DNA of 8,799 nt. Source: a virus. Lineage: Duplodnaviria > Heunggongvirae > Uroviricota > Caudoviricetes. Below, one piece after another: positions 1 through 8,799 of this stretch (position 1 is its first letter; each line of letters starts with the position of its first letter). Both the position numbers and the translations under genes were made by a program. The notes beneath the pieces were generated by a model that saw only the letters and a program-made list of their open reading frames with translations, was not told where the DNA came from and searched no databases. The stretch is taken from the IMG/VR virus record IMGVR_UViG_2534681774_000024. One strand, written 5' to 3'.

Positions 1-666
1 CGGAAAGGTATCCATCCACAAAATCATCTGGCCGGTTACAGCGGTGTGCTTCAGGCCGATGCTTACGGTGGTTACCGGGTGTTATACGAATCCGGCAGAA
101 TAACGGAAGCCGCGTGTATGGCTCATGCCCGGAGAAAAATCCACGATGTGCATGCAAGAGTGCCCACCGACATCACCACGGAAGCCCTGCAGCGTATCGG
201 TGAACTGTATGCCATAGAGGCAGAAGTCCGGGGATGTACAGCAGAACAGCGTCTGGCGGCAAGAAAAGCCAGAGCTGCGCCACTGATGCAGTCACTGTAT
301 GACTGGATACAGACTCAGATGAAAACACTGTCGCGTCACTCGGATACGGCAAAAGCGTTCGCATACCTGCTGAAACAGTGGGATGGCCTGAACGTGTACT
401 GCAGTAATGGCTGGGTGGAAATCGACAACAACATCGCAGAGAACGCCTTACGGGGAGTGGCCGTAGGCCGGAAAAACTGGCTGTTCGCGGGTTCCGACAG
501 CGGTGGCGAACATGCGGCGGTGTTGTACTCGCTGATCGGCACATGCCGTCTGAACAATGTGGAACCAGAAAAATGGCTGCGTTACGTCATTGAGCATATC
601 CAGGATTGGCCGGCAAACCGGGTACGCGATCTGTTGCCCTGGAAAGTTGATCTGACCTCTCAGTAA
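1..666 (+). CDS. IS66-family transposase, C-terminal part (5' end lies upstream of the window)
   Basis: The frame is open from nt 1; the ORF track starts at the first Met (nt 46). The translation carries the region [29 protein letters not shown] (DNN-x-AEN-type motif) that I recall as characteristic of IS66/ISEc8-type transposases. The stop lies 30 bp before an IS66-type terminal repeat. Confidence 0.85.
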
Positions 667-696
667 ATATCAATACGGTTCTGGCGAGCCGCTTAC
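1..696 (+). mobile_element. IS66-family insertion sequence, right-hand portion with terminal inverted repeat at about 677-696; the element continues upstream of the window
   Basis: The reverse complement of 677-696 is GTAAGCGGCTCGCCAGAACC, so the outward-facing terminus begins GTAAGCG, as I recall for IS66-family ends. The integrase-like minus-strand translation stops making sense exactly at nt 696/697. The 8 bp at 697-704 (GTATATTT) are a candidate target-site duplication, but the left end is not in the window. Confidence 0.75.
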
Positions 697-1552
697 GTAT
701 ATTTCCTCCATTAATCATAAAGTGAGCAGCAAAGGTATGGCGTAGAACATGTACAGCCTGTCCTTTTGGTAGGTCTGGCTTAACACTGCGAAGCACCTTG
801 CGATATTCCTCATAATTGACGTCAAACAAAAGGCCGGATTTCTTTGTTTTGATCTCACTAACAACTTCATCAGAGACAGGAATAATTCGAACTTTTCCGT
901 TTTTAGTTTTGTTAAACGTCACGCGATTATTGATGATGTGTTCCGCGCGCAGATTTTTCGCTTCTCCCCATCTCGCCCCAGTACTGAGACAAAGTAGCGT
1001 AATCCGCCGGGCATCACCGCTTACTGCATCCAGTAATTTGGCGATTTCTTCCGTGGTGAGATACGTCATTTCGGGTGATTTTCGTTTCAAAGAGGGGAGG
1101 GCGCGGAGCGGATTTTCTCCGTGAAATTCCCCGGCATTTGCCAGGAGTGTAAACATTCCTCCGAGATCCGACTCATCACGCCGAACAGTAGACTCTTTTA
1201 CTCCCAAGGATAAACGGGAGCTTCGATAAGCGGCCATGAAACGAGCATTAATCTGGCTAACCCTTGGATCATTCATTTCTTTGATGATTTTTTTCAACCT
1301 GGTTAGAACGCCGTTAGCATATGGCTTATTGCGTCCACCCAATTCCCACCATAACGGAAGCAGATCTGAGAGATGACGTTGCTCTGTTGGCTTTTCAAGC
1401 CATTCCTTATCGTGCATGTGGCTGAGAACATAACGCTCAAAGGCCACTGCATCTGCCTTTTTCTTAAAAATCCGCTGAATCCGACGTCCACTTCGGCCAC
1501 GCGGTCTAACATCCACTTTATACCGTCCACCATCGAGCGCTTTAATTGCCAT
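697..1552 (-). pseudogene. int: P2-type tyrosine integrase, truncated at the C-terminus by the IS insertion (about 285 codons retained; catalytic Tyr region not present here)
   Basis: Part of minus-strand ORF 587-1585. Probable start is ATG 1550-1552 (MAIKALDGGRYKVDV...) with GGAGGG 7 nt upstream. It contains LCLSTGARWGEA and HVLRHTFAAHFMINGGNI, matching the P2 Int family as I recall it. After ...GGNI the reading frame continues into the IS terminal repeat ([11 protein letters not shown]... is translated IS sequence). Confidence 0.8.
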
Positions 1553-1618
1553 TGGCAAGCCCTCCGGTGAAACGAGGAAAGACATTTCCAGTTTGTAAAA
1601 CGTAAGAATAATAAAGGG

Positions 1619-4647: not shown

Positions 4648-4665
4648 GAAACCAGAGCATGCACA

Positions 4666-4793
4666 CACAAAAAAACCGCTTGCCATGCCGCAATCAGTCA
4701 GGTTACATTTCCGCTGCACCTCATAAAACGGGTGCCGGGTTTCGCAGCCTGCTGACTACAAGAGCGCACAACCGCGCCAGCGGTTTTTTTGTG
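4666..4793. repeat. Perfect 15-bp inverted repeat pair (CACAAAAAAACCGCT at 4666-4680; reverse complement at 4779-4793) bracketing 98 bp
   Basis: Read directly from the sequence. Each arm contains a run of seven A (or T) next to CCGCT/AGCGG. Confidence 0.7.
4770..4790 (+). terminator. Candidate intrinsic terminator: AACCGC-GCCA-GCGGTT hairpin running into T7
   Basis: A 6-bp stem (4770-4775 / 4780-4785) with a 4-nt loop, followed by a T-run through 4790. The stem is short, so this is tentative. It sits about 120 bp downstream of the stop of ORF 4348-4647. Confidence 0.35.
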
Positions 4794-4969
4794 CGTACTG
4801 TATTGCCACGTTTTTTTCGCGTCAGAATTATGGCGGGGCGTACGGGGCCGACTTCGGTCGGGCCGGGATCTCTTGTAGCCGGTACTGCGAACCTCGTACG
4901 TCTCGCCACCCACAGTTTCGCAGCTCTGGATGGTGAGTTTTCACAACTTACTACAAGAGGCCACATATC

Positions 4970-5200
4970 ATGGCAAACCGCAAACAGCACCGCACTATCG
5001 CGGAGCGTCGTCACATCCAGACTGAAATCAACCGCAGACTTTCCCGCGCATTCCGCGTCGCTAAAATCATGCACATCAATATGCTGCATGAGCGTAGCTG
5101 CGAACTTTCAAACCTCTATTCATCCGCTGTTTTCAGCTATCTGGCGGATGATCTGCGCGAGCTTCAACAGCTCATCCAGCAGCAAAACAAACTCCATTAA
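4970..5200 (+). CDS. Hypothetical protein (76 aa), predicted helical
   Basis: ATG 4970 with AAGAGG 9 nt upstream. The product is Arg/Gln-rich but protein-like, whereas the overlapping frame (ORF 4659-5276) is Ser/Arg-rich and low-complexity. Confidence 0.5.
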   Translation: MANRKQHRTIAERRHIQTEINRRLSRAFRVAKIMHINMLHERSCELSNLYSSAVFSYLADDLRELQQLIQQQNKLH

Positions 5201-5272
5201 TTCCTGTTCCGGACCTTTCCTGCACCTTGCGGCGGGAGGCCTTCGCACATCTGTAACAAGAGGATTGCCGCA

Positions 5273-5638
5273 ATGATTCTCGCCAACGACTTTCTTGAAT
5301 ACCTGCTCAACACAGAACGTGATCTTGCCGCTCGCGTGCGTGATCGTTATGACATGTACCTGAAATCCCTGCCTGTACCGCAGCTCGCTGACGGAAAGAT
5401 TGTTATTGATGGTCGCTACATGATTGACAGCCACGAGGGAAATTACAGGCTTTACCGCATTGAAGGTGGCACCCCGTCCGTTATTGGCATTTACCAGCGC
5501 CCATCCTCTGCAATCGTCGATGTGATTGCCGACAGCATCCGCATCACACATCGCCATGCCGACACAGAAGACACCGTGCTGGAAATTCAGCGGCTGGCTG
5601 CCGTCTGCCGCGACACCCTGAATGGCATGACGAAGTAA
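5273..5638 (+). CDS. Hypothetical protein (121 aa) immediately upstream of gene A
   Basis: ATG 5273 with AAGAGG 9 nt upstream. Its stop is 6 nt before the gene A start. Confidence 0.5.
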   Translation: MILANDFLEYLLNTERDLAARVRDRYDMYLKSLPVPQLADGKIVIDGRYMIDSHEGNYRLYRIEGGTPSVIGIYQRPSSAIVDVIADSIRITHRHADTEDTVLEIQRLAAVCRDTLNGMTK

Positions 5639-5644
5639 ATCACT

Positions 5645-8468
5645 ATGACGGCAGAGTACATCAGGGACTGGCAACAACCGCGCCACGCAGTGGGACGTGA
5701 AGGAACGGGGATCCCCGTTCCTGAATCTGCGCTTTCTTCCTGGCTGGATGCCTACCGGGCAGAGAACGAGCGCCGCCAGGAAATGGCTGATGCGGCGTTC
5801 TCCGCCACGCCGCTGGGCAACCTGATTAATAAAAGCCTGGATGCACAGGAAAAACAGGACAAAACCATCACACTGGCAGGAGACGCCAGAAAACAGGCAC
5901 GCGGCGCGGTGGATGAAGCCATGGCCTCGCTGCGCCTGCTGCCGTCCTATCTGCGCGATCCGCTTATTCGCCACCTCTCCTTCCTGCGCAAAAAACAGGA
6001 AGTCGATCGCCGGAAAGGCAAAAAGAGCTGGCAGGCTGAACGCTACGCGCGCGGAACCCTGCGCAAAATATTCGAACGTCTGGACCGCACCGACCACCGC
6101 TGGCTGACACCGGGTTATCGCTCCCTTGCCGGACGCGAACGCCTGGATGATTTGCTTTACCTGCCGCAGCTCAACAAGCACCAGATACAGACGCTGGCCA
6201 CCATGACGGCGGCGATGTTCAGCAGCACCTTCGAAAAACTCTGCGATGGCTTTGGCGCGACTGATGGCGAACTGACCATGGATGTAACGCTGAAGGCGTA
6301 TCAGATGCTGGCCCGCATGGCGTTACACCTGCACGCCATGCCTCCACATTATGACGCACTGACAACAGACAAAGACCGGAGGAACGAACCGGACACGGAG
6401 CTGCTGCCGGGCGCAATCCTTCGCCTGACCTGTGCGGAATGGTGGAAACGCAAACTGTGGCTGTTACGTTGCGAGTGGAGAGAAGAACAACTCCGCGCCG
6501 CCTGTCTGGTTTCCAGAAAAACATCACCCTATCTGAGCCAGGACGCGTTAAGCGAGTTTCGCGCACAGCGCGAGAAAACACGCGATTTCCTGAAAAGTTT
6601 CATGCTGGAAAATGAAGACGGGTTCACGATTGATCTCGAGACAGTGTATTACGCGGGAGTAAGTAACCCGGTTCACCGTAAGGCAGAAATGATGGCCACC
6701 ATGAAGGGACTGGAACTTCTGGCCGAAGCCCCGTGGCGACAGAGCGGTGTTTCTGACTGTCACCTGCCCGTCAAAATACCACGCAACAACGGAGAACGGT
6801 CATCCGAACCCCAAATGGAACGGGGCCACCATGCGCGACTCCAGCGATTACCTGGTTAACACGTTTTTTGCGGCGGTCCGCAAAAAACTGAACCGCGACG
6901 GCCTGCGCTGGTATGGCATCCGCACGGTGGAGCCTCACCATGACGGAACCGTGCACTGGCATATGATGGTCTTTGCCCATCCGGAAGAAATCGACACCAT
7001 TGTGTCCCACACCCGCGATATTGCCATTCAGGAAGATCGTCACGAGCTGGGCGATGATATTACTCCGCGCTTTAAGGCGGAGTATGTAGACGGCTCAAAA
7101 GGCACGCCAACCAGCTACATCGCCACCTACATCGGAAAGAACCTGGACAGCCGCGCCGTGGATGGCATCGACCCGAAAACGGGCAAGCCACGCGTTGACC
7201 ACGAAACAGGAAAATCAATGGCCGAGAGCGTGGAGCGCGCCATCGGCTGGGCGCGCCTTCACCGGGTCCGCCAGTTCCAGTTCTTTGGCATTCCCTCCCG
7301 TCAGGTGTGGCGTGAACTCCGCCGCCTTGCCAGCCAGATGGCACGCAACCCGGAAGGCCCGCAACGGCTGAAGGATGACGCAATGGATGCGGTTCTTGCT
7401 GCCGCTGATGCCGGGTGTTTTGCCACCTACATTGAAAAACAGGGTGGCGTACTTGTTCCGCGCAAGGACTACCTGATTCGCACCGCCTACGACCTCGCAG
7501 ATGAGCTGAACGATTACGGCGAACAGAGTGTACAGATTTACGGGATCTGGTCGCCATTCATCGGGGAATCCTCCCGTGTGTGCACGCATCCGGATAACTG
7601 GAAGCTGGTAAGACGTAAACCGGAAGCGGAGGACAGCGCCCGCGAAAATGGTTTTGACCTTCAGGGCGGCCCTGCCGCCCCTTGGACTCGTGGCAATAAC
7701 TGTCCCCGTGTACAGGAAACGGACAACAACGGGACAGAACAGTCGGAAGAACGGCCAGCACCGTGGCCGCAGCTCCCTGACGGCGTTGAAGTGAACGAAT
7801 GGATGCGCTCACTGAAACGGCACGAACGCCGGGCGCTGATGCGTTCGCTTCGTGACAAACAGGCAAAAAACAGCAGTGATGAAATGCAGAGCTGGACACA
7901 GAGCCGCAAACAGCAGTGGCCTTTGCCTGATAACCACGAATTACTCGCTAAAGAATGGCGGAAGTCTGCTGAATCTCTCGGCCTGCATATCGGTGAACAA
8001 CAGATGCAGCACCTGTTACGGGGCGGCAGTCTGTACGTTGACGGCAGCATCATTGCACCGCAGGGATTTGAAATTGTACGCAAACCGGATACCCGCCCGG
8101 ACAGTCGAATCACGCAGCTCTGGCAGCGCCTGAGCCGTAATCATGGCGTAAGCAGCACGGAGATCCGCCATAACCCGGTCGCCAGCTATCTGGCACAGCT
8201 GGGGGCATCAGACCCTGAAGCCGCCGCACGCCTGGCATCCACACTTCAGCAGGACCAGAACACCATGAAAACACCCGTTACCGTGCTTTCTGACATGCTG
8301 CGCGCCATCCGCGACGCAGAGCACGCACAGAGAATCAGTGAAATCACTGAACGCGCCAGCCGCAAAGCAGACCTGCTGCGGGGTGGCCTGACCAGCGGAA
8401 ACAAAAAACAGACAGAAACGGGACTCACGAATCCCGTAAATGAGCAAAAAACGCGCAGCGATATATGA
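5645..8468 (+). pseudogene. A: P2 gene A-type rolling-circle replication initiator (HUH endonuclease), read in two frames with a frame change near 6729-6732
   Basis: ORF 5645-6859 (frame 2) and ORF 6747-8468 (frame 0) overlap by 113 nt. The downstream part carries FLTVTCPS, the HUH motif in GTVHWHMMVF, and a paired-tyrosine motif TSYIATYIGKN, matching what I recall of the P2 A / Phage_GPA family. Frame 0 is open from 6705. Removing one C from the CCCC run at 6729-6732 gives a continuous reading ...[27 protein letters not shown]... The 6747 start in the ORF track is a GTG inside this reading. Confidence 0.75.
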
Positions 8469-8544: not shown

Positions 8545-8799
8545 ATGAAAATTTGTATCGACGACGGCTCCACCAACATCAAGCTGGCATGGACTGAGAA
8601 CGGCGAATGCCGCAACGCCATCAGCCCGAACAGCTTCAAGTCGGAATGGTCTGCGCCGTTCGGTGGCTCGCAGCCTGCGAACTACATGCTTGATGGCGTG
8701 CGCTATGGTTTTGATCCGGTCAGCGATCGCTTTGTCCAGACGACCGACACGCAATACCAGTACAGCGATGTGAATATAATCGCCATTCACCACGCGCTG
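8545..8799 (+). CDS. parM: ParM/StbA-like actin-family ATPase, N-terminal 85 codons (3' end beyond the window)
   Basis: ATG 8545 with AAGGAAAA about 8 nt upstream; open to the window edge and in frame. The translation MKICIDDGSTNIKLAW...ISPNSFKSEW...YQYSDVNIIAIHHAL closely parallels the N-terminus of plasmid R1 ParM as I recall it (MLVFIDDGSTNIKLQW...WQYSDVNVVAVHHAL). It is not in the ORF track because it has no stop within the window. Confidence 0.8.
   Translation, partial: MKICIDDGSTNIKLAWTENGECRNAISPNSFKSEWSAPFGGSQPANYMLDGVRYGFDPVSDRFVQTTDTQYQYSDVNIIAIHHAL

Follow-up and report, generated by a model that had tools for sequence, protein, structure and literature searches.

An extra C that splits the gpA-type replication endonuclease gene of a P88-like prophage in the Escherichia coli DEC12E draft is probably a sequencing or assembly artefact

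Why does a replication endonuclease gene that is a single reading frame in its relatives appear as two overlapping frames in the draft genome of E. coli DEC12E? The DNA analysed here, which we call the window, is 8,799 nt long and was identified by exact-protein match as the entire contig AIHE01000081.1 of the 2012 draft of this strain (assembly GCA_000250295.2). An earlier note on this DNA described a gpA-like initiator split by a change of frame inside a run of four Cs, and attributed it either to an inactivating mutation or to a homopolymer sequencing error. The split is present as described, with coordinates and a 113-nt overlap that are exact, and the two explanations are the only ones that the evidence leaves. 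The gene, its two reading frames and the run of Cs are located as follows.

5645..8468, plus strand: gpA-type replication endonuclease gene, complete; 2824 nt here, 2823 nt (940 aa) in all relatives
5645..6859, plus strand: upstream ORF from the ORF list, 404 aa, ATG start, deposited as EHX39666.1
6747..8468, plus strand: downstream ORF from the ORF list, 573 aa, GTG start at 6747, with the catalytic motifs and the C-terminal part
6729..6732, plus strand: C4 run with the extra C, C3 in relatives; the only indel in the gene

The two ORFs, which are in different frames, share the stretch 6747-6859. The sequence across the break is GGCCGAAGCCCCGTGGCGAC, in which CCCC occupies exactly 6729-6732, and the upstream frame around the break reads LLAEAPWRQSGVSDC, with its stop at 6857-6859. 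The upstream ORF consists of 362 native N-terminal residues and 42 out-of-frame residues (PWRQSGVSDC...LPG), followed by TAA. The zero-frame codons at the C run are GAA GCC CCG TGG (E A P W), and the shift falls at codon 363, five codons ahead of the first catalytic motif. In the deposited record, EHX39666.1 is annotated as [quoted passage not shown], and the downstream ORF is started at ATG 6831, which gives a product of 545 aa. The earlier note had also proposed that removing one C at 6729-6732 restores a single reading. It does: the resulting 2823-nt gene encodes a 940-aa protein identical to WP_000123484.1 of strain 12A.

We next considered what kind of protein is interrupted. The upstream ORF matches positions 1-179 and the downstream ORF positions 185-321 of the 321-position Pfam profile Phage_GPA (PF05840), whereas the intact protein matches the whole profile (positions 1-321, E = 5.5e-131, 436.8 bits against a cutoff of 31.4). 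Because both halves share this profile, the locus is one gene broken within a single conserved domain rather than a chance pair of ORFs. In BLASTP, the intact protein aligns with P2 gpA at 31% identity over 688 columns (E = 2e-80), and the alignment is continuous over the junction, where the P2 gpA stretch is MNTIAGIERYAAAEGDVGMFITLTAPSKYH. A weak match to PF23343 (REP_ORF2-G2P), at 25.1 bits, is under the cutoff of that profile (27.8). Three catalytic motifs can be placed on the DNA.

6747..6773, plus strand: VFLTVTCPS (VFLTVT at 6747-6764), aligned with MFITLTAPS of P2; it corresponds to motif 1 of rolling-circle initiators
6954..6962, plus strand: HUH motif HWH (H437-W-H439 of the intact protein), inside PHHDGTVHWHMMVF and aligned with HHDGTPHWHMMLF of P2
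7116..7130, plus strand: YxxxY pair YIATY (Y491 and Y495), aligned with Y450 and Y454 of P2 gpA, presumably the active-site tyrosines of that protein

All three motifs lie 3' of the break, where they make up a complete HUH rolling-circle Rep set. P2 gpA (NP_046795.1, 761 aa), a site-specific nicking initiator of rolling-circle replication, shares motif 1, the HUH motif, the YxxxY pair and PF05840 with the P88-type protein and is collinear with it over about 690 residues. The P88-type protein, at 940 aa, is extended at its N terminus relative to P2 gpA and has a tail of about 200 residues at its C terminus without a P2 counterpart. In P2, the nick site is annotated inside gene A. Judged by its sequence, the gene belongs fully to the P2 gpA / Phage_GPA family of HUH initiators; the profile match, the collinear alignment and the motifs all uphold the earlier designation of a gpA-type initiator. 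From homology to P2 gpA, its product would be predicted to nick a specific origin and to become covalently attached to the 5' end.

The exact position of the lesion was established by alignment to intact homologues, as the earlier note had recommended. The DNA of the gene is 97.5-97.8% identical to that of phages P88 (97.5%) and vB_EcoM-569R5 and 97.0% identical to that of Shae_phiSM; the alignment with these three contains a single gap, at the C run, where all three have CCC, and a whole-gene alignment with P88 gives the same result. P88, vB_EcoM-569R5, Shae_phiSM and the E. coli strains 12A, FDAARGOS_1059 and MFDS1022581 all have the gene annotated as a single 2823-nt CDS. In P88 (YP_009113059.1) and in 12A and FDAARGOS_1059 (WP_000123484.1), the same gene lies in the same neighbourhood as in the window, with a 121-aa ORF upstream and parM and a partition gene downstream; in contrast to their one CDS, the frame here is split by the extra C. 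The intact protein identical to WP_000123484.1 is found on 10 contigs, including those encoding EHX20775.1 and EHX29507.1, whose accession numbers are near that of EHX39666.1.

The record closest to the window is NZ_CP077479.1, a complete chromosome from E. coli O111:H2 strain 12A. Over 8,798 aligned bases the two have only two differences, namely the extra C, which is the only indel of the whole window, and an A/G difference at 8776. FDAARGOS_1059 shows one further difference from the window, at position 1926. The A for G at 8776 (V78I in ParM) lies 23 nt from the contig end and was found in 0 of 1,292 complete E. coli genome records containing the segment (best match 119/120); it probably reflects an error in the consensus at the end of the contig.

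The element is a P88-like (Xuanwuvirus, Peduoviridae), P2-related prophage adjoining pheA in the E. coli O111:H2 "DEC12" clone. Its contig is short and bounded by repeats, with IS679 at the left end and, at the right, a family of prophages that has three locations in strain 12A. The 12A chromosome (NZ_CP077479.1) has the gpA segment at three places and FDAARGOS_1059 has it at two, and we therefore conclude that the DEC12 clone carries several P88-like prophages, which probably explains why the draft contig ends inside parM. The left edge of the contig (window 1-690) is the end of an IS66-family element, with an IS679 transposase ORF at 46-666. Two further features of the prophage are relevant here.

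587-1585, minus strand: integrase gene, cut by IS679 128 nt short of its normal stop
8545-8799: segregation pair, continuing in locus L005 at 11544-12819; the contig ends inside parM

The uninterrupted integrase gene, as seen in strain MFDS1022581, is 990 nt long, and in strain 12A a 141-nt remnant of it lies beyond the insertion sequence. The same insertion of IS679 in the integrase gene is common to 12A, FDAARGOS_1059, the NCTC assembly (UGEB01000001.1) and the sister draft (AIHC01000073.1). Because this integrase-cutting insertion is shared by clone-mates, the prophage is probably excision-defective throughout the clone. The segregation pair, a ParM/StbA actin-like ATPase and a Plasmid_stab_B protein, is of plasmid type and directly follows gpA; it is also present in P88 and all close relatives and is unusual equipment for an integrating phage. 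Upstream of gpA, a 205-aa ORF is called at window 4659-5276 in one FDAARGOS_1059 annotation, and a 76-aa "Derepression"-like ORF in another frame inside it (4970-5200) is the sole call there in RefSeq and in the DEC12E record.

We then asked whether the CCCC allele occurs anywhere else. An 86-bp segment around the C run was located at 1,407 places in 1,274 complete E. coli records, none of which contains the identical segment; at best, 85 of 86 positions match, with a gap of one base. With a 41-nt query built so that any 28-base seed must contain CCCC, the CCCC-spanning 28-mer was found in 0 of 5,426 complete E. coli genomes and 0 of 50,697 phage records. In IMG/VR, the CCCC 24-mer had no matches, compared with 113 for the CCC 23-mer, and every alignment to these 113 loci has a one-base gap at the C run. 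None of the 113 is a DEC12 clone-mate, the nearest of them reaching 99.9% identity over 3.3 kb. The CCCC 24-mer was likewise absent from metagenome contigs (241 million metagenome records). At the protein level, the 404-aa and 545-aa products are encoded by this contig only, among about 15 billion proteins, and the 573-aa product has no record in the exact-protein search.

These searches bear directly on a possibility raised by the earlier note, that close relatives have a natural two-protein version divided at the same point. None has one: more than 1,270 complete E. coli genomes and the close phages read CCC. The RefSeq annotation of phage 520873 (NC_049344.1, locus L004 1492-4312) does divide gpA, into three CDSs with differing product names, but its breaks are at other positions, namely a change from A6 to A5 at the window equivalent of 5990 and a one-base deletion at 6863, and its C run is CCC. 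These deletions are likely assembly errors carried into RefSeq. The gpA gene of phage 503458 is fragmented in a like manner.

Could the two frames instead be joined by programmed +1 ribosomal frameshifting at GCC-CCG, or form a deliberate, functional two-protein initiator? Such a scheme has as its sole support the 113-nt overlap of the frames and the fact that shifting by +1 at the C run would yield the native protein. Against it, relatives at 92-99.9% identity all carry CCC in frame, with the gene annotated as a single CDS; with the site in frame in every relative, no feature here can have been shaped by selection for recoding. The CCCC arrangement is not conserved, with 0 occurrences in the 1,274 complete-genome records, the 113 IMG/VR contigs and the P88-like phages; none of the relatives is divided at this boundary, and the split falls within a single conserved domain, Phage_GPA. 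The local codons are also unfavorable. The C run is read GCC CCG in frame 0, not CCC-N, and an alanine tRNA on GCC is unable to re-pair with CCC once it has slipped by +1. E. coli does not translate CCG slowly, a run of four Cs is shorter than transcriptional slippage requires, and GAA GCC CCG TGG is presumably not a recognized shift-prone context (examples being CCC-N and a Shine-Dalgarno sequence followed by a hungry or stop codon). We consider programmed frameshifting or a natural two-gene arrangement extremely improbable and ruled it out, because every relative has CCC in frame and none shares the boundary. It is just as hard to credit that DEC12E truly carries CCCC and nevertheless makes a working initiator, either because a low level of +1 frameshifting occurs at GCC-CCG or because the N-terminal fragment of 362 residues is complemented by a catalytic fragment started internally. 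If it did, a P2-type cis-acting initiator could function in two pieces.

A real and very recent +1 insertion, private to DEC12E and caused by replication slippage in the C run, deserves more weight, although we consider it unlikely. The insertion is present in the sequence as deposited, and it breaks a single conserved domain five codons ahead of motif 1. IS679 has already cut the integrase gene clone-wide, so gpA may be under relaxed selection. Clone-mates differ by real-looking substitutions, at about 1 per 7-15 kb to a few per 10-15 kb, and other assemblies have gpA broken at other sites (phage 520873), although those breaks are perhaps errors too. DEC12E is, moreover, an isolate distinct from 12A, FDAARGOS_1059 and the strains of the other drafts, and a private real mutation fits all of the comparisons equally well. 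However, CCCC was found in no other genome, phage, viral contig or metagenomic contig searched. Substitutions usually outnumber indels, and at about 1 substitution per 10 kb the number of real indels expected in 8.8 kb is far below 1. The private change near the contig end, together with a private homopolymer indel in a sister draft, also points to consensus errors instead.

That sister draft, AIHC01000073.1, belongs to the same accession series. Compared with FDAARGOS_1059 over 12.7 kb, it contains one change, A6 for A7 at 11306-11313 of locus L011, where five other clone-mate sequences have A7; the change shifts the start of an 87-aa ORF. Each of two drafts of the series thus has, within this prophage, one homopolymer indel of its own that breaks a frame, accompanied by 0 and 1 substitutions in the two drafts, and this favors an artefact. 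So do three properties of the contig itself: CCCC is private to this one 2012 draft, while clone-mates are otherwise identical; the private change at 8776, near the contig end, fits an imperfect consensus; and the contig is short, with repeat ends.

Homopolymer indels are also seen in another assembly of the clone. Relative to FDAARGOS_1059, the NCTC assembly UGEB01000001.1 has three one-base indels (T5/T6, C4/C5 and an extra C, at 12480, 13472 and 14606 of locus L009), which disrupt the portal and terminase genes of this prophage and look like uncorrected long-read errors.

On balance, we regard the extra C as probably an artefact of draft sequencing or assembly. The writing of CCC as CCCC would mean that the consensus of the 2012 assembly misstates the homopolymer length, the resulting frame shift would turn one 940-aa gene into two overlapping ORFs, and strain DEC12E itself would carry an intact gpA gene. 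We infer, then, an origin in sequencing or assembly and not in the cell. The pattern is that of known homopolymer-length assembly errors, in which a one-base change in a run, confined to one assembly, breaks a conserved gene; such errors are seen in A6/A7 of AIHC01000073.1, in T5/T6, C4/C5 and the extra C of UGEB01000001.1, and in A5/A6 of 520873. A point against the artefact is that the run is only 3-4 bases, at the short end for errors of this type and short for a consensus error at normal coverage. We also considered mis-assembly from paralogous P88-like prophages. The window shows no mosaic of paralogue differences, and we retain this route only as a sub-case of the artefact.

The consequences for the prophage would differ if the mutation were real. 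The product would then comprise the 362 native and 42 foreign residues, and motif 1, the HUH motif and the YxxxY pair would be made only through an internal restart at GTG 6747 or ATG 6831. With a single conserved domain cut five codons ahead of motif 1, the initiator would very probably lack activity, leaving the prophage without the means to replicate. Even so, this would not be the first crippling lesion of the prophage, because IS679 already interrupts its integrase gene.

In either case the class of lesion is a familiar one, a homopolymer-length error in a draft or a slippage frameshift in a decaying prophage, and nothing about it is new. EHX39666.1 and its 545-aa neighbor are the halves of one well-known replication endonuclease, and the split products of DEC12E should be tallied neither as new gene families nor as a variant with a split gene. 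The importance of the finding is limited to this bookkeeping, and it has no bearing on how gpA-type initiators function. If the mutation is real, a prophage that IS679 in the integrase gene had already disabled would have gained a further lesion.
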